Assembly: GCA_039024555.1 (NCBI GenBank)
Contig: JBCCQQ010000105.1
Coordinates: forward strand, 1 to 11,731
Direction: 5' to 3'
Origin: Cyanobacteria bacterium P01_D01_bin.156
Lineage (GTDB): Bacteria; Cyanobacteriota; Cyanobacteriia; Phormidesmidales; Phormidesmidaceae
DNA length: 11,731 bases
Shown: positions 127-11,731 of the stretch, one piece after another
How the letters are laid out: each line of letters begins with the position of its first letter
Position numbering within the stretch: position 1 is the stretch's first letter
The notes under the pieces: model-generated
What the model was told of the DNA's origin: nothing
The model's database searches: none
Seen by the model: only the letters and a program-made list of their open reading frames with translations
Program-made: the position numbers and the translations under genes

Positions 127-200
127 CGGGATGTAGCGCAGCTTGGTAGCGCACTTCGTTCGGGACGAAGGGGCCGCTGGTTCGAATCCAGTCATCCCGA
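127..200 (+). tRNA. trnP: tRNA-Pro (anticodon CGG); probable integration site of the element
   Basis: Cloverleaf: acceptor CGGGATG/CATCCCG, D-arm GCGC-AGCTTGGTA-GCGC, anticodon stem CTTCG/CGAAG with loop TT-CGG-GA, T-loop GGTTCGAATCC, discriminator A. No encoded CCA. Confidence 0.97.
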
Positions 201-342: not shown

Positions 343-1497
343 ATGAGCAGAGCATTTGCGTCGGTTGCGGGCTTCTCGCCCACTAGCAATGAGGCCAGGC
401 AGAGCACGGTCAAGATTGAAAGTGATGATGGCAGACTCAGATTGCGCTTTAGCTATGGGGGTAAGCGATATGCTATGGCAGTTGGCTTACCGGATTCTAA
501 GGTCAATCGCATTGTGGCACAGCAAAGGGCCGCCCAGATTGAGTTGGATATCGTCTCTGGGAACTTTGACCTTACATTAAAGAAGTACAAGCCACCCAAG
601 GGTGGGGGCAAAAAAGCCGAAGTCTCCCAGGTAACGGGTCTTTTCCAGAAATTTACGAAAGTTCAGACTAAGGCCAAAGGGTTAGAGGTGGGCAGTCTGT
701 GTCGCTACAATGCCACGCTGAAGCATTTGGAAACCTTCTTTTCTAATAAAGAGTCTGAGGCAGTGGAGGAGTCAGATGCGCAGGCATTTGTAGCCTACCT
801 GCGGAAAAATGTCAGTGAGCGGACGGTTAAGGAGTATGTGACGCTGGTGCAATCTTGCTGGGTTTGGGCTGCGAAAAACTTACCAGATAATCCCTGGATA
901 GCGGTCTTGACCCAGGTAAAGCCTGCCCCCAAGCAAAAGGTAAAGCCTTTTACCTTGGAAGAGGTGCAGAAAATCTTAGAGGGGTTCAGAACCGATCGCT
1001 ATTATCGGCACTATGCAGATTTCGTGACATTTCTGTTTGGAACCGGGTGCCGATTTGGAGAAGCGGTCGCCCTACAGTGGAAGCACCTGGCGGATGATTT
1101 CTCAACGGTGTGGATTGGTGAATCGGTGTCTCGGGGGGTGAGGAAGACGACCAAGACAGGTAAGGATCGGACGGTGACACTGACGGGTAAGGTGGCTGAG
1201 ATGTTGGTGGCTCGGAGGTCGAACAAATGGAAGCCAGATGATCTGGTGTTTCCAGCTCCTCGGGGGAAAACAATTAATGATCGAAGCTTTCGGCGGCGGG
1301 CATGGAAGAAGGTTTTGAAAAAATCAGAGATTGAGTATCGAAAGCCTTATGCGACCAGGCATACGGCGATTAGTCATGCGCTTGCCAATGGGGCGAATCC
1401 GCTGGCGGTGGCGGAGCAGACAGGGCATGATCCACAGATCTTGTTTAAGCATTATGCGTCTGTGATTCAGCAGTCAGCAGTAATGGTTGAGTTCTAG
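343..1497 (+). CDS. Tyrosine recombinase/integrase with N-terminal arm-DNA-binding domain (cyanobacterial type)
   Basis: N-terminal three-stranded arm-binding-like segment (GRLRLRFSYGGKRY). Catalytic motifs TGCRFGE (R), KTTKT (K), PYATRHT (YxxR variant of HxxR), QTGH (H) and KHY (Y nucleophile). Confidence 0.95.
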   Translation: MSRAFASVAGFSPTSNEARQSTVKIESDDGRLRLRFSYGGKRYAMAVGLPDSKVNRIVAQQRAAQIELDIVSGNFDLTLKKYKPPKGGGKKAEVSQVTGLFQKFTKVQTKAKGLEVGSLCRYNATLKHLETFFSNKESEAVEESDAQAFVAYLRKNVSERTVKEYVTLVQSCWVWAAKNLPDNPWIAVLTQVKPAPKQKVKPFTLEEVQKILEGFRTDRYYRHYADFVTFLFGTGCRFGEAVALQWKHLADDFSTVWIGESVSRGVRKTTKTGKDRTVTLTGKVAEMLVARRSNKWKPDDLVFPAPRGKTINDRSFRRRAWKKVLKKSEIEYRKPYATRHTAISHALANGANPLAVAEQTGHDPQILFKHYASVIQQSAVMVEF

Positions 1498-1564
1498 ATA
1501 TAGGCCATCTTTAGACGCTGTCAGCGTAGAAAAGTCCAAATATCTACAAAAATGTCTTTATTTG

Positions 1565-1603
1565 CTGACAAACAAAATTTGAGCACCATATTTTGTTTGT
1601 CAG
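1565..1603. promoter_or_regulatory. 14-bp perfect inverted repeat between integrase and NLR gene (operator or terminator)
   Basis: CTGACAAACAAAAT (1565-1578), 11-nt spacer, ATTTTGTTTGTCAG (1590-1603); directly followed by TATGAT (1604-1609). Confidence 0.55.
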
Positions 1604-1741
1604 TATGATATCTATTGATTCGGAAATTTGTGATTATGATAGCGTTTTGAGGCGATTAGTTGTTGAAAAGGTCCAGCTAAATTAGAAGGCTGACTCGATA
1701 TAGACTGTTCTGTCGCTGGTTGTGCATCCGGTTCCCTAGCT

Positions 1742-4700
1742 ATGCCAAATATGCCCCAAGATGAGGAAAAGTTGGCTACTGGCCAGACTAACCAACAAAA
1801 TGTAGCTAATAATTTTGGCCATGTCATTTGGCGGGTAGACAATCTTTCAATCTACTATTCCAGTCCACCAGATACGGAACCACCCCCTCTTCAAGCGACG
1901 AATACTTCAGAAATTGGTCCCAATCCCTATCGAGGGCTGCGAGCATTCCGAGAAGAAGACCATGCCGTTTTCTTTGGTCGCCGTCAGCAGACATATCAGC
2001 TCTGGAAAAGGTTGAAGGCTCTGTATGACCACCCTTCAGCAGTTCGGTTTTTGCCGGTATATGGACCATCGGGTTCAGGTAAGTCGTCGCTAGTGAGAGC
2101 AGGGTTACTGCCGGTAATTGGTCGGCATTCCCTGTCTAGCCAGGAGCATACTCGGGTTGCGATTCTGGAGCCTCGGACTCAACCATTAAAGGGGTTAGCC
2201 TTAGCTTTGGCACGGATGGCAACGGGAGATGATTCGCCTGTGGCAAAGGCGAGAGAGTTTTATAAGGAATTGCAGCAACGAAATAATCAAGCCCAATATG
2301 ACGGGCTATGGCACATTGTCAGATCACTGCCGGGTACTGAATTTTCACCTGTGATTGTGGCGGTAGATCAGTTTGAGGAGATTTACTCTCAGTGTAAGGA
2401 CAAGCGCCAGCAACAGATTTTTATCAATAACCTGCTGACAGCAGCGGCGGATCAGTCGCGGTTGGTAATTGTGGTGGTAACGCTACGCAGCGACTTTTTA
2501 GGAGAAACCCAGGCTCATCCCTGGCTGAATAGGCTGTTTTCTAAGCATGGCTATCTGGTTCCGACAATGAATAAGGTGGAACTGCGACAGGCGATTAGCA
2601 AACCAGCGGAAAAGGCGAGGCATCCGCTAGATACAGCCACGGTGACGCTGTTGATTCAGGAGACTCAGCAGCGGGAAGGGGCGTTGCCACTATTACAGGT
2701 GGCGCTGAGTGATATTTGGAATGGACTGCGGGACGGGAAGGAACCCGGCCAAACTCTGCAAGAGATTGGCGGCGTGGGCGGAGCGTTGGCGAAGAAGGCG
2801 GAAGCAATCTTCCAGGCGTTAACACCGGAGCAACAGGCGATTGCACGGCGGGTATTTTTGGGGGTAATTCAGCTAGGGGAAGGTACTCGGGATACTCGGC
2901 GTCGGGCGCAGGTAAGTGGCTTAGTAGCGCAGCGAACGACGGTTGCTCAGGTGCGGGAAGTGATTGAACGGTTTTCCTGGCGAGAGGCGAGATTGTTGAC
3001 CTTGGCAGCAGACAATGAGGGAAAGGAGACAGTTGAGGTGACCCATGAGGCACTGATTGAACATTGGCGACGTTTAAATGATTGGCTTGACAACAACCGC
3101 GATGACATCCGATTTCAGCGACAACTAGAGTCAGCTATTCAGAACTGGCAGATCAAAGGACAGGCAGAAGGTTTACTATGGCGTCCTCCTGATTTAGATC
3201 TTCTGCAGGACTTCCATCAGCGGGCTGGACAAAATATGACATTGAACCAACTTACTTTCTTCCAGAAATCTCAGTTGGCAGAAAAACGACGCAAGCGAAT
3301 GCGCCAATTAGGGTTGGGTGGTCTGATAGCAGGTCTTACAATTACTACAATAACAACCGCATTGTCTGTGTGGTATGCCCAAGCTGCTAATCGTAGTCGT
3401 GAAGAAAGTATATTACAGGTTGCTCAAGCCCAAATTGAAACCTCTGCAAGGCTGAACGCTGTCGGAGAGAACTATGATGCTCTGATCAATGCTTTGCAAA
3501 GTATTAAGTATCTGGATAAGAACAAGATAGATAGGCCGCTTGTGCTAGCTCAAGCAAAATCTAAAATGCTCTCCTCTTTTCTAGAATTACGGGAAATAAA
3601 ACATATTTATGAATCTAATGTTAATGATCTAAGCTTTAGCCTTGACGGTAACATTATTGCCATTGCTGGTGAAACCACCGCAGCGCTGTGGAGTCCTGAT
3701 GGTGAGCTTATTAACGAGTTCAAACTACGGGGTTTTGAACTAGGAGATGCTGAAGCTATTCGATTTAGCCCTAATGGCAAAACCATTGCCATTTCTACAA
3801 AGGAATTGGTAATGATGTACGGACTTAATGGTGAGTTAATTGACGATATTGAAGTAGACCATGAACACTTTATCCACGACATACACTTCAGTCCAGATGG
3901 AAATGTTCTAGCTGTAGCCTATAGTAGTGGAATAGTAATGCTATGGAATTATCAAAAGCAAATTATCACATATATACCAAAGGACGCTAGTAGAGTTTCA
4001 CCTTTGACCACATTTGTCCTTCCTTCAAATATAATTGACTTCAGTCAAAATGGGGATATCATTGCCACAGCCGATCTCCATGGAAATCCAAAGTTGTGGA
4101 GCCTGGATGGTCAACTCATTGCATCTTTGCAAGGACATAATGGTATCGTTTCCCAGGTACGTTTTAGTCCAGATGGAAACATAGTTGTTACTTCTGGTTC
4201 AGACGAGACCGTTAAGTTATGGCGTCGCGATGGTCAGCTCATAACCTCCTGGCAAAGCCCTATCGGTAGAATATCTGATATACGTTTTAGTCCTGATGGA
4301 AAGATCATTGCCATAGCCAGTTTTGGAGGATCAGTAAGACTATTAACTCATAATGGTCAAATCATTACCTCTTTACAAGGGCATAGTGATCAGGTCAATG
4401 AAGTACGCTTTAGTGCTGATGGCGATATTATTGCTACTGCTAGCGGAGACGGGACAGCAAAGCTATGGAGTCTTGATGGTAAACTCATCGCGTCATTTCA
4501 AGAGAATGGTGTTCCTATTTCGGGTGTACACTTCAGCCCTGATGGAAGCACCATTGCAACTCTGACTAATCCAGATCTGACTAATCCAGCATCTAGAGAC
4601 CCTTCTACAGTATCAGGGGAAAGAAAGGCAACGATCTGGTATTCCGATAAAACTCTAATCCCATCTTTGCGTGTAAATGATGAAATAGTCAATTATTTAG

Positions 4701-5872
4701 ATATCAGCCCTGATGGTAAAACCATCGCTACAGCTGGTGCTGACGGAATAACAAGGTTGTGGGATCTTAATGGTCGGCTCATCACATCCCTTAAAAAACA
4801 CAATGGTGAAGTATATCAGGTAATCTTCAGTTCCGATGGTAACACCATTGCTACAGCCAGTACCGATAAGACAGTAAAGCTGTGGAACTACACTGGAGAA
4901 CTTTTAGTATCTCTACCAGGAGAAGACAATCAGGATGTTCCCTTAGATGACTATGATTTTATATATCCTGATTTTAGCCCCGATGGAAACCTTCTTATAA
5001 CTATTCTTCAGGGTGATGATGATCAAGTAATGTTGTGGAATCGCGACGGTCAATTTATTACATCTTTTGAAAATTCTGGTGAATATTTTTTTAGGCCGCT
5101 CTTCAGCCCAGACAGTAATAATATTTTAACTACTGATAAGAACGGAAAAGTTTATTTATGGAACAAAAAAGGTCAACTTATTACTTCCTTGACTAAACAT
5201 GCTAGCAGAGTGACTTCAGCAGCTTTCAGTTCTGATGGTAATATTGTAACCGCTAGCGAAGATGGGATGATATTTTTGTGGAGTCAAGACGGCCAATTTA
5301 TAACCTCTCTAAAACAACATAGTGATCAGGCAGCTTACAATATATTCTTTGCCCCTGATAGTAGCTTTGTAGGTGCGACTATCAATGATGAGACAAAATT
5401 ATGGAACCTACGTGGAGAAATCGTTGCTTCTATGAAAGGTAGATATTCAGGTTTAAGTTCTGACAGTAATATTATTGCTACTGTTGATAGTGGCACTGTA
5501 AAACTCTGGGGATTCAGAGGGAATTTTATAAATTCTATTAAAGGAACTAATGTTCGATTCAACCCTGGTGGTAATACTATTTCTATTTTTGATAACGGAA
5601 CTGTGGAACTATGGAGCATTGATGGGACTCCTTTGATTTCCCTTGAGGAACAGAATAGTGAACTTAGATTTATAAGATTAGTTCCTGGTGAGGATACAAT
5701 TATTACGAATAATGCACAAGGTATAGTAAGACTTTGGAAATGGAACCCTGATTGGGTTGTAAACAAAGCATGCCAACAAATACAAGCACACTTTTCTAAA
5801 AAATCTCCTGATTTGGAAGAAGATAAGAATTTATGCATTGATACAGCTTCAGATTCTGAAAGTGTTTTTTGA
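1742..5872 (+). CDS. NLR-like STAND NTPase (nSTAND1 type) with N-terminal amyloid-like motif, predicted TM helix and ~17 WD40 repeats
   Basis: PYRGLRAF...FFGR N-cap, Walker A GPSGSGKSS (aa108), Walker B VIVAVDQFEE (aa204), TLRSDF, GALPLLQ, EVTHEALI..W motifs. Hydrophobic segment aa523-546 after KRRKRMR. Repeated GH/FSPDG/ATAS.D.T.KLW WD40 units. Confidence 0.93.
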   Translation: MPNMPQDEEKLATGQTNQQNVANNFGHVIWRVDNLSIYYSSPPDTEPPPLQATNTSEIGPNPYRGLRAFREEDHAVFFGRRQQTYQLWKRLKALYDHPSAVRFLPVYGPSGSGKSSLVRAGLLPVIGRHSLSSQEHTRVAILEPRTQPLKGLALALARMATGDDSPVAKAREFYKELQQRNNQAQYDGLWHIVRSLPGTEFSPVIVAVDQFEEIYSQCKDKRQQQIFINNLLTAAADQSRLVIVVVTLRSDFLGETQAHPWLNRLFSKHGYLVPTMNKVELRQAISKPAEKARHPLDTATVTLLIQETQQREGALPLLQVALSDIWNGLRDGKEPGQTLQEIGGVGGALAKKAEAIFQALTPEQQAIARRVFLGVIQLGEGTRDTRRRAQVSGLVAQRTTVAQVREVIERFSWREARLLTLAADNEGKETVEVTHEALIEHWRRLNDWLDNNRDDIRFQRQLESAIQNWQIKGQAEGLLWRPPDLDLLQDFHQRAGQNMTLNQLTFFQKSQLAEKRRKRMRQLGLGGLIAGLTITTITTALSVWYAQAANRSREESILQVAQAQIETSARLNAVGENYDALINALQSIKYLDKNKIDRPLVLAQAKSKMLSSFLELREIKHIYESNVNDLSFSLDGNIIAIAGETTAALWSPDGELINEFKLRGFELGDAEAIRFSPNGKTIAISTKELVMMYGLNGELIDDIEVDHEHFIHDIHFSPDGNVLAVAYSSGIVMLWNYQKQIITYIPKDASRVSPLTTFVLPSNIIDFSQNGDIIATADLHGNPKLWSLDGQLIASLQGHNGIVSQVRFSPDGNIVVTSGSDETVKLWRRDGQLITSWQSPIGRISDIRFSPDGKIIAIASFGGSVRLLTHNGQIITSLQGHSDQVNEVRFSADGDIIATASGDGTAKLWSLDGKLIASFQENGVPISGVHFSPDGSTIATLTNPDLTNPASRDPSTVSGERKATIWYSDKTLIPSLRVNDEIVNYLDISPDGKTIATAGADGITRLWDLNGRLITSLKKHNGEVYQVIFSSDGNTIATASTDKTVKLWNYTGELLVSLPGEDNQDVPLDDYDFIYPDFSPDGNLLITILQGDDDQVMLWNRDGQFITSFENSGEYFFRPLFSPDSNNILTTDKNGKVYLWNKKGQLITSLTKHASRVTSAAFSSDGNIVTASEDGMIFLWSQDGQFITSLKQHSDQAAYNIFFAPDSSFVGATINDETKLWNLRGEIVASMKGRYSGLSSDSNIIATVDSGTVKLWGFRGNFINSIKGTNVRFNPGGNTISIFDNGTVELWSIDGTPLISLEEQNSELRFIRLVPGEDTIITNNAQGIVRLWKWNPDWVVNKACQQIQAHFSKKSPDLEEDKNLCIDTASDSESVF
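4561..4589 (+). repeat. In-frame 15-bp tandem duplication within a WD40 loop (LTNPD-LTNPA)
   Basis: TCTGACTAATCCAG at 4561-4574 and 4576-4589. Confidence 0.85.
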
Positions 5873-6024
5873 AATTTTACGATCATTAAAATATTTACCT
5901 TCTAAGCGCAACCGCCTCGAAGAGAGGGGCAGACCCACCACAGTCAAGATTTCTATTTCCCTTCTGCTTAAATTGAACGAATTCAAGCTAAAAAGATTGT
6001 GAAAAAAATTCTGGTAAAGACATA

Positions 6025-6059
6025 GAGTATCAGCTCTAAAAAGGAAAGAACTGATACTC
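6025..6059 (-). terminator. Stem-loop 3' of the MACPF gene, between convergent genes
   Basis: Minus strand: GAGTATCAGTTCT / AGAGCTGATACTC, a 13-bp stem with one G-U pair, 15 nt past the stop and followed by TATGTCTTT. Confidence 0.6.
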
Positions 6060-6074
6060 CACTTTATTTATAAA

Positions 6075-7760
6075 CTAGAACAGCTCACGTCGAATAAACA
6101 ACACCCAGACCTCCCAAGTCTCATGCCGCTTTGCATGAGACCGGAAATCAGCAAAATACCACCACCGATTATCCCGCTCATAGGGATATACCTGAACAAT
6201 ATCCCCCCGATCATGCTCCTGAATATCACCTCCTAACGCTCGAAAACCAGCAATTGTGGCAATCCAGCTACGGGTCGAAAACCCCGTATTCACCCGATTG
6301 CCCGTATACTTCCGCAGCACCATCGCCGAGCCACCCCGCACCCGAATACTCCCATTCACATCCAGCTTGCCTTTAGGGTTCGTGGTACCAATACCTACCT
6401 CACCATTCACCAGCAGATCCGGCGTGCCCATCAGGTGTAGATTCTTGCCATCGTTGAACTTAGCCCAAACCTGATTTCCCTGTTCAGGCTCCCGAATTTC
6501 TAGGTCGTTGCCATCGCTCCGCAGCAGCCAGTCCCCTCGTTTTGCTTGAAACCCATCATCCGCAATCACCTTACCGCTGACGCGAATATCGCCATTCTCA
6601 TTCGGGTTCACCGCACTTTGCAGCAGGTTTACCTGCTCACGCACCTTGGCCAGTTGTTCTTCCAGTTGCTTCAGCATCATGTTTTCCTCCGAAAATTCAG
6701 GTAAGGGTTCAGTCGCGACAAAATAAGACGTGGGCAGTTCACAGGCATCGAACGAGGCTCGACAGGCTTTAGCTCGACGCTGCAACTCATTCAGCTGTTC
6801 GCTGACAAGTTCAAAATCCTGCCGATAGCGGTCTTTCTTAGCAATTTGCTCCTCCGGTGTCAGCACCAGATGGTCTTCAAAGCTGTAGAAGTTATCCAGC
6901 ACATAGCGCAGGTTGGCGCGGTAGTCCTTGTAGCTCCAGTACTTCAGCCCTAGTTCCTCCATCATCGCGAGCCGATGGGCGCGGGAGAAGGCACTTTCAC
7001 CTACTGCCGGGGGTAGTGGCACCGTCTTGCGATACTCCTCGAAAATGCCCTGGAACTCAACAGGATGATTCTTCACCAGCTTCGGGAAGCTCTTCGCCTG
7101 AGCAATCATTTCCTCCAGCGTGGTTTCCACCGGGTCGCCACTGCCGCCGCTTTGCAGCACCGTGACCTTGAGTTCTTTGTTTGAGATCGCCTGCTTCAGC
7201 TTCAGGTCTAAACTGCCCGATGCCTTAAACAGGCCATAGCTAGCACTCACCGCCACAGCGATATCTTGCTGCTCCTGCTTGCTGAGGGTTTTAATCTCAA
7301 TTAGCCCGTAGTAGCTGCCACCCGTGATCACTCCGGCCATATACTCTGGCCCGTAGTGACTCTCAAACCAGTCCCAGCCTCGTTCAGCCAAAAGCTTGTA
7401 AATCTCTGGCTTAAACCGAGGATTACGAATCATCAAATTGGGGTTCTTGACCTCCACGCTCACCAGCAAATAGGTGCTGTACTGGTTCACTGATTGCTGC
7501 TGGGCGTAGTTCACCTCTGCCGAAGCACTGAATAGACCAAAGCCCACAGAGGCCGACGCTGAAACATTCAGCATTTTACTGAGTTCTACCGAACTGGTAA
7601 TCTGTTGCAGATTAAACCGCACTCGCTGTCCCAACTGCTGGTTGTCAATTAGCGAAGTAGGAGGGTCATAGGCGATGGCATAACCATAGCTTTCCCCCAT
7701 CTCAGCATCCACGCCTTTACCAAGAGTGGCACCGGCAGGTATTGGACGAATTGTGGCCAT
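6075..7760 (-). CDS. MACPF/CDC-like pore-forming domain protein with coiled coil and C-terminal tail-fibre-like region
   Basis: N-terminal LGKGVD; MACPF-like signature YGPEY-x6-GG (aa136-148); two alternating amphipathic TMH-like segments (aa64-85, 167-186); coiled coil ~aa361-384; fibre-type VGIGTTNPKGKLDVNGSIRV motif; SD AAGGAG at 7769-7774. Confidence 0.8.
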   Translation of the reverse strand: MATIRPIPAGATLGKGVDAEMGESYGYAIAYDPPTSLIDNQQLGQRVRFNLQQITSSVELSKMLNVSASASVGFGLFSASAEVNYAQQQSVNQYSTYLLVSVEVKNPNLMIRNPRFKPEIYKLLAERGWDWFESHYGPEYMAGVITGGSYYGLIEIKTLSKQEQQDIAVAVSASYGLFKASGSLDLKLKQAISNKELKVTVLQSGGSGDPVETTLEEMIAQAKSFPKLVKNHPVEFQGIFEEYRKTVPLPPAVGESAFSRAHRLAMMEELGLKYWSYKDYRANLRYVLDNFYSFEDHLVLTPEEQIAKKDRYRQDFELVSEQLNELQRRAKACRASFDACELPTSYFVATEPLPEFSEENMMLKQLEEQLAKVREQVNLLQSAVNPNENGDIRVSGKVIADDGFQAKRGDWLLRSDGNDLEIREPEQGNQVWAKFNDGKNLHLMGTPDLLVNGEVGIGTTNPKGKLDVNGSIRVRGGSAMVLRKYTGNRVNTGFSTRSWIATIAGFRALGGDIQEHDRGDIVQVYPYERDNRWWYFADFRSHAKRHETWEVWVLFIRRELF

Positions 7761-7904
7761 TGTTATTTCTCCTTAAGATTTCAAGGGTGTAAAAAAGCGC
7801 AGCCTTCCCCTTCCTGAGCAGCAGAGGGCCGCTCAGCAGAGGCAAACTATGCAAAGAGGAAGGAAGTTTTGGTAAACTGGCTCTAATGCAGAGAACCAGT
7901 TTGA

Positions 7905-8087
7905 CTATTCAGCCAATGAGTTTGACTCCACGGCTTCAGTGGAAGGCACGTCGCTAAGGAGCATCTCACCGACGACGATACAGATCTCTTGAATGCCTCC
8001 CTTTGTAAACAGAATCAGGACAGACAGAACCATCTGTAAGGCCATCATCTGACGATGGGAAAGGCGACGACGCTTCGGTTGTTTCAT
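7905..8087 (-). CDS. Small putative membrane protein, co-oriented upstream of the MACPF gene
   Basis: 60 aa with basic N-terminus (KQPKRRR), hydrophobic core MMALQMVLSVLILF and acidic tail. Lies between a candidate -10 (8121-8126) and the MACPF gene. Confidence 0.5.
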   Translation of the reverse strand: MKQPKRRRLSHRQMMALQMVLSVLILFTKGGIQEICIVVGEMLLSDVPSTEAVESNSLAE

Positions 8088-8147
8088 GGCATTTCAGCCC
8101 CCGTTGAACGCTACAATTCCTTTATAGGAGGCGGGTCCCGCTGTTCT

Positions 8148-8202
8148 GCCGTAGTAGACCCGGAGTAAAACCGGACTTCTCCAGGACTTTTCCAGGAGTT
8201 TG
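8148..8202. repeat. Five imperfect 11-bp phased direct repeats (candidate operator array)
   Basis: GCCGTAGTAGA, CCCGGAGTAAA, ACCGGACTTCT, CCAGGACTTTT, CCAGGAGTTTG; the GGA core sits at 8162, 8173, 8184 and 8195. Confidence 0.7.
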
Positions 8203-8299
8203 CTTAACCATGTCAAATGACGTGATTTTGTTGATTCAGGAGCATCACTTTCAGAAATCACCGATATACTGAAGGGCAAACTACTATGCAAGATGTCAC

Positions 8300-8647
8300 A
8301 TGTCGGATCGTACTCTCCAAGTTCATCCCAGCCGTATCGAAATAGTCAAAAAAGCTTACAAGACCAGTGGTCATACCAACCAAATTGAGTTTGCCAGAGA
8401 AGTTGGCTTCAGTGACGACGCCCTCAGGGCATTCTTGAATGGCAAACCCGTATATCGCGAAACCTTTATGAAATTCTGCGAAGCGCTGGAACTTGATCAC
8501 AAAGAGCTGCTTGGGGAAGCAGCACCTAATAACTCTTCAAATGCGACAACCGGCACACAGATTAATCAGTCTGTTGAAAACAATTATGGTTTTGTGATTG
8601 GCACTGTCGGTACGCTAAATCAGAACAACTCAGACAAAAGTTCTTAA
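8300..8647 (+). CDS. XRE-like HTH protein (resembling the N-terminal HTH of cyanobacterial STAND proteins) with C-terminal amyloid-like motif
   Basis: RTLQV...QIEFAREVGFS..AL.AFLNGKPV..ETF.KFCEALELD HTH pattern, low-complexity N/S linker, then QINQSVENNYGFVIGTVGTL. Confidence 0.85.
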   Translation: MSDRTLQVHPSRIEIVKKAYKTSGHTNQIEFAREVGFSDDALRAFLNGKPVYRETFMKFCEALELDHKELLGEAAPNNSSNATTGTQINQSVENNYGFVIGTVGTLNQNNSDKSS

Positions 8648-8683
8648 CGCCCACAAACAGTCCACAAAACCGAGTACAAATCA

Positions 8684-9319
8684 CTACAGCTTGTGTCCTA
8701 TCCAAACAACTTTACCCATAATGCTTAGACTACTGGGCCTATCCGACAATTCAATTGAAAAAGTCTCATAAGCAGGATTGTCACTGAGCACTTGAAGCGT
8801 ATTATCTACCCAATATTGCAATCGCTTGATCAGCAATCGATCCCCCAACTTAAGCAAGTAAACCCCGTGGTCAATGGCATCCAGGTCTCGGATATTGGTG
8901 TCTACCAAGATCAAATCGCCGACATTCAGCGTGGGCTCCATGCTTTCATCCTTGACCTGAGTCAGGAGAAGATTTTCAAATGAAGTTGGAAACTGGGCCT
9001 TTAGCCAATCTGCCTCAAAAGCCAAGGTTTCTTTGTAAATGTATTTCTGAGCGAGAATATCCGTTGAGTTTTCGGAAGCTGTCTGCCCGGCTGCCAACCA
9101 CTCCAGACTGACGTCAGCGGCGCGGGCAATAGCGAGAAGCACAGGTCGGGTTGGCTCACTTTGCCCATTAAGATACTGGCGCAGTACCGTATCCGAGAAA
9201 CCGCACTCACGGGCAAAACCTCGAATGCTTTTATCTCCAACTGCTTTTTTCAATCGACTGGGAAAATCATCAGACTCGTTAACATCAGACTGCTTCTTTT
9301 TGGATGATGGATTACTCAT
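8684..9319 (-). CDS. CI/LexA-like repressor (XRE HTH + S24 peptidase-like domain)
   Basis: HTH SIRGFARECGFSDTVLRQYLNGQSEP...WLAAG; S24 motifs ESMEPTL..GD.ILVD (Ser) and LLIKRL (Lys), LSDNPAY, I.GKVVW. Confidence 0.92.
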   Translation of the reverse strand: MSNPSSKKKQSDVNESDDFPSRLKKAVGDKSIRGFARECGFSDTVLRQYLNGQSEPTRPVLLAIARAADVSLEWLAAGQTASENSTDILAQKYIYKETLAFEADWLKAQFPTSFENLLLTQVKDESMEPTLNVGDLILVDTNIRDLDAIDHGVYLLKLGDRLLIKRLQYWVDNTLQVLSDNPAYETFSIELSDRPSSLSIMGKVVWIGHKL

Positions 9320-9419: not shown

Positions 9420-9719
9420 ATGCACGTAGAAGATATTAAAGCAGCTTTGCGAAAACAAGGCTGGACTTTGGCAAGCATTGCCAAAGAGTTAGAGATTGGC
9501 CCCTCGGCTGTCTCCCACGCTTTGACCAGACAGCGCTCTCGCCGGATTGAGCGCGTGATTGCGAGCAAGCTTGGGCTTGCCCCCCGAGAGATATGGCCCC
9601 AACGATACAAAGGAGGAAAAGCTCGTGAGCGAATTTGTCAGCAAACAGGAGGCATTGGAATATCTCAAACTCAGCAGCACCACTCTGAAAAAGTACCGCT
9701 TGAAAGGGTTGCTGGTTGA
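9420..9719 (+). CDS. Ner/Nlp-family (phage Mu Ner-like) DNA-binding protein
   Basis: MHVEDIKAALRKQG.TL...SHAL...ERVIA.KLG..PREIWPQRY follows the Ner pattern (H.ADI.AALRK.G ... EIWPSRY); divergent from the CI-like gene. Confidence 0.88.
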   Translation: MHVEDIKAALRKQGWTLASIAKELEIGPSAVSHALTRQRSRRIERVIASKLGLAPREIWPQRYKGGKARERICQQTGGIGISQTQQHHSEKVPLERVAG

Positions 9720-9921
9720 AGGCATCCATTGGGTTCGCATTAATAGTCGCTGCATTCGCTACAACCAGGAACTGATCAAAGACTGGGTACAAAATCGTCA
9801 CGATCCGGCAGCCCATCAACGAGCCATCGAGATTTATCAAGCCGGTTTACTCAGCAACCAAATCAAGTCATCTAAAGCGACTGTAAAATCGCGCTCCAGG
9901 CCCCCAGTCAAGCACCATTGA
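9625..9921 (+). CDS. Excisionase-like/MerR-type winged-helix DNA-binding protein (GTG start)
   Basis: Same frame as track ORF 9559-9921, but SD AGGAGG (9611-9616) precedes GTG at 9625. FVSKQEALEYLKLSSTTLKKYR..G.L.EGIHW...RYN...IKDW is Xis-like. Confidence 0.75.
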   Translation: MSEFVSKQEALEYLKLSSTTLKKYRLKGLLVEGIHWVRINSRCIRYNQELIKDWVQNRHDPAAHQRAIEIYQAGLLSNQIKSSKATVKSRSRPPVKHH

Positions 9922-9986
9922 CAACTGCACGTTTCATCACGTTGTTGATGGCTTCATCGAGCTATATCCAGAATTAAACGCTCAAT

Positions 9987-10019
9987 AAAAAACACCCAGC
10001 TGATTACCAGTTAGGGTGT
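9987..10019 (-). terminator. Intrinsic terminator on the antisense strand
   Basis: Minus strand ACACCCTAACTG-GTAAT-CAGCTGGGTG hairpin followed by TTTTTT. Confidence 0.55.
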
Positions 10020-10117
10020 CTGACCGTGAACTTTAGTTTTTCGAGCTGGGTTAATTTACTTTTCTGATTGGTTTTACCAGAACCGACCAGGCCATTAACC
10101 TGCTACTAAATTTGTGT
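9987..10117 (-). ncRNA. Candidate counter-transcribed antisense RNA upstream of the replication gene
   Basis: Minus-strand promoter TAGACA (10151-10146), 16 bp, TGc-TATAGT (10129-10124), plus the minus-strand terminator at 9987-10019. The 5' end is approximate. Confidence 0.45.
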
Positions 10118-10237
10118 TCTTCAACTATAGCAAACTAGCTCAAAATGTCTACAAAGATAGGACCCTCATCAATATAAATTGAGCCCAGTAGCAGGTCCAG
10201 ATGGATAGCCCAGCTCCCAACCCATCAGGAGCTGACC

Positions 10238-11731
10238 ATGGCACAGTACCAATATTCAGGCCGATCGCATCCCTGCCCGATCTGCGATCGCACCAAAGAT
10301 CAAGACTGCCGCTGGAATGAGGAGGTGGTCTTCTGCCACACCCACATTGATCAGGACGTACAGGTAGCGGGCTACGTCTACCGGGGCGTAACCGCTGATG
10401 GCCTGTGGGGACAATACTTCGCAGCGGCTGCCGAGCCCGCCAAGCCGGTGCGGCCCCGCCGCAAACAGGACTATTTCTACCCCAGTCGGGACGGTCAACC
10501 ATTGGTGAGGGTGACCCGAGTGGATCAGGGCAATGGCTCGAAGTATTTTGTGCAGCAGCGCTGGGATGGGCAACATTGGATCAAGGGGCTTACCCCAGAG
10601 GTGAAGCAGCAGGTACCGATCTATCGCTATCGGGAAGTGCAGGGTGCGATCGCAGCCGGACGCCCTATTTGGATGGTGGAAGGAGAAGGTTGCGCTGATG
10701 CACTCTGGCAACTGGGGGTTCCGGCGACGACGACCCTGGGTGGGTCCAAAAAATATCGCAGCTATGGGAACTATAACGCGGATCTGAAGGACGCTCGCCT
10801 GGTGCTGTGCCCCGATCAGGATCAGGTGGGGCTGGCCCACATGGCGGAGGTCTATCAGGATTTTCCCCAGGCGCAGTGGTGCTATGTCTACCCGGATAGC
10901 TGGCGCTGGCAGAATTTGCCCAAGCATGGCGGTCTGGATATTGCTGATTGGATTGCGGATGGGGCGACGGCGGAACAGATTCGGGCAGCGGTGGGGGCGC
11001 GGCGACAGCTTGACCCGCCAGGGGCCAACCAATCCCTGGATGTGCCAGCGCTCCAGGCCCAGATTCGGGATTATCTGGCCCAGGCCCCCTCGGAGCTGGA
11101 GCTATCGGGGCAGGTGGTGCAGTGGCATCGGGAGGTGGGGCTCTCGGCCAGAGATCTGTGGAGTTTGATTAAGCCGATCCAGGCGGAGCTGGAGCAGACA
11201 GAAGAAAGAGATGATCGCATCGCTGAAATCAGTCAGCTCTTAAAGATTGGGGATTATGAGTTACAGCTCAACGACTATCTCCACCCCGACCTGGCGGAAC
11301 CGCTGACTCGTATTGCCAACTGGATTGGGGCCACCCCAGCGGCCATGCTGGTGACCCTGCTGCCGGTGGCGGCATCCCTGCTGCAGATGGGGACGGAGTT
11401 GGAAATTGATGCAGGGATGGGCTTCTATGTGCCGCCGATTCTGTTTACCGGGCTGGTGGCCCCCTCGGGTAGTAAGAAGAGCCCCATCCAGCGGCAGATT
11501 CTGAAGCCCCTATCACGATTGCAGGAAGAGGCAGATCAGGACTATGACTGGGCGGTTTCAGAGTATGAGGTGGAGCTGCGAGAGTGGGAGCTGACGAAGA
11601 AGGAGGACAGGTGCGATCGCCCCCGGAAACCCACCCCACGGGAGTATCACACCTCGGATGCGACTCGAGAGGCACTGGCGCGAATTCAGTCGCAGCAGCC
11701 GACGCGGGGGATTTTGGTGACGCCGGATGAG
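10238..11731 (+). CDS. Replication protein: Zn-finger + TOPRIM primase + DUF3987/YfjI-like NTPase (3' truncated by window end)
   Basis: Hand-translated open frame from ATG 10238 (SD AGGAG 10227-10231): CPICDRTKDQDC...FCH Zn finger; WMVEGEGCADAL and LCPDQD TOPRIM motifs; GLDIADW; LVAPSGSKKSP P-loop-like; SDATREAL; GILVTPDE. Not in the ORF track because no stop falls inside the window. Confidence 0.9.
   Translation, partial: MAQYQYSGRSHPCPICDRTKDQDCRWNEEVVFCHTHIDQDVQVAGYVYRGVTADGLWGQYFAAAAEPAKPVRPRRKQDYFYPSRDGQPLVRVTRVDQGNGSKYFVQQRWDGQHWIKGLTPEVKQQVPIYRYREVQGAIAAGRPIWMVEGEGCADALWQLGVPATTTLGGSKKYRSYGNYNADLKDARLVLCPDQDQVGLAHMAEVYQDFPQAQWCYVYPDSWRWQNLPKHGGLDIADWIADGATAEQIRAAVGARRQLDPPGANQSLDVPALQAQIRDYLAQAPSELELSGQVVQWHREVGLSARDLWSLIKPIQAELEQTEERDDRIAEISQLLKIGDYELQLNDYLHPDLAEPLTRIANWIGATPAAMLVTLLPVAASLLQMGTELEIDAGMGFYVPPILFTGLVAPSGSKKSPIQRQILKPLSRLQEEADQDYDWAVSEYEVELREWELTKKEDRCDRPRKPTPREYHTSDATREALARIQSQQPTRGILVTPDE

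Follow-up and report, generated by a model that had tools for sequence, protein, structure and literature searches.

Matching amyloid-like motifs in an NLR-like receptor and a Cro/C1-type HTH protein of a cyanobacterial mobile element: a candidate split STAND regulator

In the window, which is the whole stretch of DNA analysed (11,731 nucleotides, one whole contig of Cyanobacteria bacterium P01_D01_bin.156), an NLR-like receptor and a small Cro/C1-type HTH protein were found to carry matching amyloid-like motifs, at the N-terminus of the former and at the C-terminus of the latter. Amyloid coupling of this receptor to this HTH protein, whatever the direction of regulation, is considered probable. 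A more specific reading, namely, a split STAND-type transcription regulator that is wired by amyloid signalling and activates a divergent operon, is put forward tentatively, with somewhat less than an even chance of being correct. The features concerned were as follows:

1742..5872, plus strand: NLR-like receptor, 1376 aa (Pfam nSTAND1 2.6e-108, WD40 5e-74)
1778..1846, plus strand: receptor-side amyloid-like motif, aa 13-35 of the 1376-aa receptor, 61% Q/N/G/V/I
8300..8647, plus strand: Cro/C1-type HTH protein, 115 aa, candidate effector (Pfam HTH_26 1e-4, above cut-off; AlphaFold2; homologues)
8549..8617, plus strand: effector-side amyloid-like motif, aa 84-106 of the 115-aa HTH protein, 61% Q/N/G/V/I

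The earlier note had described an identity of 11 of 23 residues between the two motifs, and this was confirmed together with the translations of 1778-1846 and 8549-8617 (ungapped BLOSUM62 score 47). Its statement that the conservation is at the protein level agrees with the finding that 35 of the 69 nucleotides match and that eight of the 11 shared residues are encoded by different codons; because of these synonymous differences, a recent duplication of the motif was rejected. Each copy contains one K/P/L residue. In an ungapped scan of 3,485,067 six-frame 23-mers of the window's own genome (G000, 99% complete), the receptor and HTH motifs were reciprocal best non-self matches, with runner-up scores of 37 (NLR motif as query) and 42 (HTH motif as query) versus 47, and no equally good match, such as the earlier note had asked about, was found elsewhere among these 23-mers. 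When 75 nSTAND1 N-termini were compared with the HTH tail, the window receptor ranked first (pair score 44), and this score was reached by none of 300 composition-preserving shuffles; two Bell/nSTAND1 control pairs scored 74-80 versus 44 for the window pair. Conservation among four close relatives was 81% in the HTH tail versus 46% in the linker, and among four relatives of the receptor it was 72% in the motif versus 44% in the flanks on both sides. A chance likeness of two N/Q/G-rich low-complexity ends is thus largely refuted and is regarded as highly improbable: both ends are compositionally biased and the motifs are short, but the shuffles never reached the observed score, the match outscored every other one of the 3.49 million windows whichever motif was the query, with the motifs only 6.8 kb apart, and a conserved HTH-tail family as well as independent adjacent pairs exist elsewhere. 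The linkage of the two motifs is not an artefact of contig joining, since a contig from another assembly pipeline, built from the probable source run and therefore not independent data, covers 1458-8834 at even depth.

The receptor consists of the N-terminal motif, a linker, the nSTAND1 domain (62-476), a hydrophobic segment and WD40 repeats, so that the motif (aa 13-35) precedes nSTAND1 (from aa 62), as in BASS receptors. Its closest named relative belongs to Leptolyngbya, a filamentous cyanobacterium. In a FastTree phylogeny of 66 nSTAND1 domains, the HTH-linked receptors were grouped into one clade (support 0.80); an IQ-TREE phylogeny of 42 of these 66 domains, with low support throughout and flat identities, did not contain this clade.

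Several further observations were made on the receptor and its kin. The hydrophobic segment (aa 523-545, window 3308-3376; hydropathy peak 1.63) lies between nSTAND1 and WD40 and, if it spans the membrane, would place the sensor outside and the motif inside. The G+C content of the WD40 region (window 3600-5872) was 35-43% versus about 50%, and the identity of this region in four close relatives was 32%, compared with 86% for their nSTAND1 domains, suggesting fast sensor turnover. In a second class of nSTAND1 loci (L124, L129, L130, L141 and L042), a helical protein of about 139 aa is encoded upstream, with an N-terminal amyloid-like motif and a C-terminal hydrophobic helix, i.e., the reverse of the Bell architecture. 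At loci L039 (genome G005) and L040 (genome G008), an integrase located at tRNA-Gly is accompanied by a cargo of tandem nSTAND1 genes, with a Bell partner in G008.

The HTH protein comprises a domain of about residues 1-72, a linker and the tail. AlphaFold2 predicted residues 10-70 to be folded and gave pLDDT < 50 for residues 75-115, which is consistent, for this copy, with the disordered linker proposed previously. HTH matches in 41 related genomes were nearly all located at the start of long frames, followed by P-loop NTPases. Among 36 longer homologues, chosen from 150 listed and scanned for the top five families each, NB-ARC, NACHT or AAA-type matches were detected in 21, TPR or WD40 only in 11, and neither NTPase nor repeats in four. 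Judged from these matches, the HTH domain is an NLR effector-type domain that in most cases occurs as an N-terminal fusion to a cyanobacterial STAND NTPase.

A profile search with the HTH domain gave 410 hits, of which 150, clustered at 50% identity, were listed; at least 13 clusters among these 150 (picked by eye) represented a stand-alone HTH domain with a variable linker and a tail, and two stand-alone clusters had doubled motifs (P0133 and P0179). In 15 aligned HTH-tail members, Q90, N95, G97, G101 and G104 were at least 90% conserved, and the linker was not conserved. Ranking of 78 short HTH homologues by composition score placed 12 members of the HTH-tail set among the top 14, together with P0235 and P0150. 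When the presence of the tail was mapped onto a tree of the HTH domain (74 rows, 71 columns), seven changes were counted versus 14.7 for shuffled labels, i.e., the tails are clustered and do not have one origin. The tail of P0148 consists of two repeats and, compared by eye, was identical at 22 of 38 positions to one entry of the published BASS set C06; P0150 has a Bell-like domain, and its tail was identical at 13 of 19 positions to one entry of set Ccya03 (also by eye). By set size in the available data of PMC8086366, these two sets would correspond to BASS4 and BASS9. Because of these two tail matches, the same HTH domain, as far as its sequence tells, has been combined with at least two motif families during evolution. 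Since BASS effectors also occur in an "all-in-one" fused form (10.1101/2020.01.06.895854), the fused HTH-STAND homologues and the stand-alone HTH proteins, at the level of sequence, reproduce the split-versus-fused pattern of BASS with a DNA-binding effector.

Other tails were also seen on the same HTH domain: P0235 has an Asn-rich tail, and in P0161 a motif is followed by a helical domain. A search of class genomes revealed no loci for P0148. A Bell-like 118-aa protein with a tail similar to the HTH tail (L112:6910-7266, contig C89 of G000) ranked fourth in the genome by PSSM; it has no adjoining NLR and may be a cross-talk target or an orphan.

The receptor motif keeps Q, N and the first G of the HTH-tail family, and has W and D at two positions where the HTH tails have nearly invariant Gly. 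Its family-level scores are modest: with the HTH-tail profile, it did not appear in the 25 best HMM hits of G000, and with the HTH-tail PSSM it ranked 7th of 73 N-termini and was unremarkable genome-wide. This modest score counts in favour of another reading, which is unlikely, namely, that the motifs are genuine amyloid motifs of one lineage but belong to shuffled cargo, so that the HTH protein, which would then be an orphan, and the NLR of the window have ceased to be, or never were, functional partners. The receptor and HTH genes are indeed not adjacent, and each was found apart from the other elsewhere (the HTH gene without NLR at L016, the NLR without a detected HTH gene in G019). On the other hand, the window HTH tail matched the receptor clade with scores of 36-44, whereas the tails of its three closest relatives scored weakly against the same clade (21-25), which is what co-adaptation predicts, and the 99% complete genome offers a better partner for neither motif.

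In the window, the receptor and HTH genes are collinear and 2427 nt apart, with the HTH gene downstream and two genes between them; thus, they lie within the 5 kb that applies to BASS pairs, which are usually collinear, and differ in order, with the effector downstream. Published BASS pairs are mostly adjacent (10.1101/2020.01.06.895854). Loci with a tail-bearing HTH gene were searched for with HTH queries in 401 class genomes (A2, P0128 and P0148) and 173 family genomes (A1 and A3), and the listed short frames that were fetched yielded no more than G448, G505 and a truncated copy in G022. Query A1 gave no such loci in the genome and viral contig collections, and the contig search with A3 gave only the G505 contig. 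L017 was rejected as a spurious match. In all, four other loci were obtained (G505, G448, L016 and G022). In G505, only 5 bp separate the HTH-tail gene from a collinear nSTAND1 gene downstream of it, and the N-terminus encoded by the latter shows the Q..N-x-G-x-h-h-G spacing of the HTH tail, although the score of this pair was only 19 (rank 9 of 75; reached by 72 of 300 shuffles). In G448, the HTH-tail gene lies upstream of, and at most 10 nt from, an nSTAND1 frame that is devoid of its first roughly 90 residues and hence of any motif. At L016, the HTH gene, the 60-aa ORF and the MACPF-like gene are arranged as in the window, and the NLR is absent from the 5.1-kb contig; in G022, the HTH-tail copy is cut by the contig end. 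Consequently, a receptor adjoins the HTH gene in two of the three loci with downstream sequence (G505 and G448, not L016). In G019, the integrase, a receptor that carries the motif of the window receptor, the MACPF-like gene and the array are followed by an IS break at a contig junction, and window segment 8209-8689, which contains the HTH gene, was not found in this genome.

The region upstream of the HTH gene contained the following features:

8149..8203, plus strand: 11-bp repeat array of about five units, candidate operator, with GA[CG]T[TA] cores at 8163, 8174, 8185 and 8196
7905..8087, minus strand: 60-aa hydrophobic ORF, first gene of the divergent operon (hydropathy 1.79), conserved in L016 and G019
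6075..7760, minus strand: 561-aa protein with a predicted MACPF/stonustoxin-like fold (Atlas structure search), candidate regulated output

The array is located in the 212-nt spacer that separates the HTH gene from the divergent operon; its period-11 matches numbered 32 of 44, which was equalled by none of 1000 shuffles, and numbered 26 of 44 in L016 and 23 of 44 in G019. Phased chains of at least three GA[CG]TT cores, a core chosen after inspection of the first 69 upstream regions of HTH-family genes, preceded 16 of 67 other HTH-family genes, always on the sense strand, versus one of 2847 genes of G000, and preceded seven of 23 HTH-family genes fetched later versus none of 250 control genes at the loci of the latter, although related genomes inflate these counts, as kin are not independent. 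Chains on the opposite strand were found for 11 of the 250 control genes, as expected of divergent neighbours. The strict chain was absent upstream of the tail-bearing genes of G505, G448 and G022 and was broken in L016. MalT and AfsR target tandem direct repeats, and this feature of STAND regulators was found near the HTH gene in the form of the predicted operator. It should be added that phased GA[CG]TT arrays occur family-wide upstream of fused HTH-STAND genes (L045, L053, L055, L065, L086 and others), and that varied divergent genes lie beyond them.

Pfam and NCBIfam contained no family matching the 561-aa protein, PADLOC gave none that was convincing, and its single-sequence structure prediction had a pLDDT of 35; the Atlas model matched MACPF_SNTX clusters with a TM of about 0.5, so that the pore-forming assignment should be taken as a lead only. 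A relative of its N-terminal part (52% identical) was noted on a 2.2-kb contig (L161, G470:C575).

The sign of regulation could also be the opposite, which is possible yet rather unlikely: the soluble HTH protein would act from the array as a repressor both of the divergent operon and of its own gene, and the templated amyloid would sequester it and thereby free the MACPF-like gene. Cro/C1-type HTH proteins are frequently repressors, and all of the pairing evidence fits this version equally well. The Rho prion, for its part, loses function on aggregation (PMC13506858). However, G019 retains the array and an intact MACPF-like gene (95% identical to that of the window) where the HTH segment was not found, a state that would be more readily tolerated if the HTH protein were an activator. 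In addition, in the fused homologues the NTPase would be expected to oligomerise the HTH domains rather than remove them, as in MalT/AfsR-type regulators.

The cargo described above lies within a mobile element with the following genes:

127..200, plus strand: tRNA-Pro(cgg) (ARAGORN), likely integration site
343..1497, plus strand: tyrosine integrase (Pfam Phage_integrase 1e-20, Arm-DNA-bind_2), directly after tRNA-Pro
8684..9319, minus strand: CI/LexA-like repressor of the element (Pfam HTH_3 and Peptidase_S24)
9420..11731, plus strand: Ner-like HTH, excisionase-like HTH and a primase-like gene that runs off the contig (Pfam HTH_35, HTH_17, DUF3987, weak Toprim_2)

The window thus probably represents an integrated satellite-like element with its cargo between the integrase and the repressor. 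The tRNA copy on contig C45 is surrounded by chromosomal genes, and a search for the right att site revealed none. Between the integrase and the receptor, an inverted repeat (1565-1603; 17-bp arms, 94% complementary, 5-nt spacer) is present as a single copy in G000. A sister element on contig C124 of G000 (reverse strand, 3622-4988) has a frameshifted primase 85% identical to that of the window, and its 146-aa and 287-aa genes both start with N/Q/G-rich beta-type motifs, which is another probable amyloid pair.

According to the preferred reading, i.e., amyloid-wired activation of the divergent operon, the WD40 sensor would bind a trigger, probably derived from an invader, and nSTAND1 would oligomerise; the clustered N-terminal motifs would adopt a cross-beta form and template the HTH tails; several HTH domains, aligned in this way, would bind cooperatively to the array with its one repeat per helical turn and switch on the divergent operon; and the MACPF-like product may damage membranes in a suicide or anti-competitor response. 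We infer every functional step of this mechanism, the amyloid step being modelled on the NWD2/HET-S and Agp/Bab precedents and the transcriptional step on MalT and AfsR. In broader terms, an NLR-templated amyloid would directly control a DNA-binding factor, the HTH domain of one-component STAND regulators having been detached and re-coupled through several BASS-type motifs, here so that a phased operator would drive a pore-forming gene; this proposition appears to us equally likely to hold or to fail. Bacterial amyloid signalling has so far been described, in the accessible part of the literature, with membrane-attacking or enzymatic effectors, and if the proposition is true, such signalling gains a transcriptional, possibly heritable, output beyond the direct execution of cell death. 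According to a 2021 review, the signalling outcome in filamentous bacteria had yet to be explored (PMC7889193). A small soluble HTH protein with a candidate operator would allow a direct reporter readout of templating, which is mostly missing in the field, and would give a first target sequence to the large uncharacterised cyanobacterial HTH-STAND family.

The motifs had been likened earlier to both RHIM and BASS elements. The likeness to BASS is upheld by the reciprocal best match, the position and composition of the motifs, the stand-alone HTH-plus-tail family and the G505 and G448 loci, whereas the likeness to RHIM was dropped: the G-hydrophobic-Q-hydrophobic-G core of the RHIM type (10.1101/2020.01.06.895854) is present in neither copy. 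BASS motifs are about 20-25 aa long, rich in Q/N/G/V/I and poor in K/P/L (10.1101/2020.01.06.895854). Compared by eye with the available data of PMC8086366, the window motif came closest to part of set C01 and to one C02 entry. It is improbable that the motifs bring the HTH protein to the receptor oligomer as plain docking elements (a beta-strand or a short beta-solenoid) with no self-propagating amyloid; sequence matching and gene linkage do not separate such docking from amyloid, and the receptor copy is devoid of two conserved glycines, but in length, composition and terminal position, as well as in their disordered linkers and doubled repeats, the motifs are BASS-like, and the BASS motifs tested all formed fibrils (10.1101/2020.01.06.895854).

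In comparison with known systems, the window pair resembles RHIM, PP and BASS3 in having a short Gly-containing beta motif common to two signalling proteins, and differs from them in that its copies are devoid of Q at the central position. Like the Bab/Agp BASS11 antiphage system, which is an experimental precedent for defence, it is a motif pair carried as mobile-element cargo (10.1101/2024.11.07.622273). In the open literature on amyloid signalling, as far as it was covered and with subscription papers outside this scope, no amyloid-coupled HTH effector and no such array were found; the term "HTH" is absent from the available portions of the texts examined, including 10.1101/2024.11.07.622273, PMC12261475, PMC7889193, PMC13506858 and PMC8086366. 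MalT, GutR and AfsR are named as STAND transcription regulators (PMC13581612). With such regulators and with the fused cyanobacterial HTH-NB-ARC/NACHT/AAA_35 proteins, the window pair shares tandem direct repeats and an HTH output that would here be under the control of STAND oligomerisation, whereas its HTH domain is of the Cro/C1 class and is separated from the NTPase, the two polypeptides being presumably joined by amyloid. The resemblance to BASS1-10 lies in the short Q/N/G/V/I-rich motif that an NLR has at its N-terminus and a small linked protein at its C-terminus, in the cyanobacterial host and in an effector domain that is also NLR-fused. The differences are that the effector is a Cro/C1 HTH instead of Bell, hydrolase, TIR2, CHAT or guanylate cyclase, that the NTPase is nSTAND1 instead of NB-ARC or NACHT, and that other genes lie between the two; matching motifs are also present in Bell/nSTAND1 pairs of G008 and G002. 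Thus, since both the effector type and the NTPase type differ, the window pair, as its sequence suggests, works like a BASS pair yet stands outside BASS1-11 as a variant of amyloid signalling.
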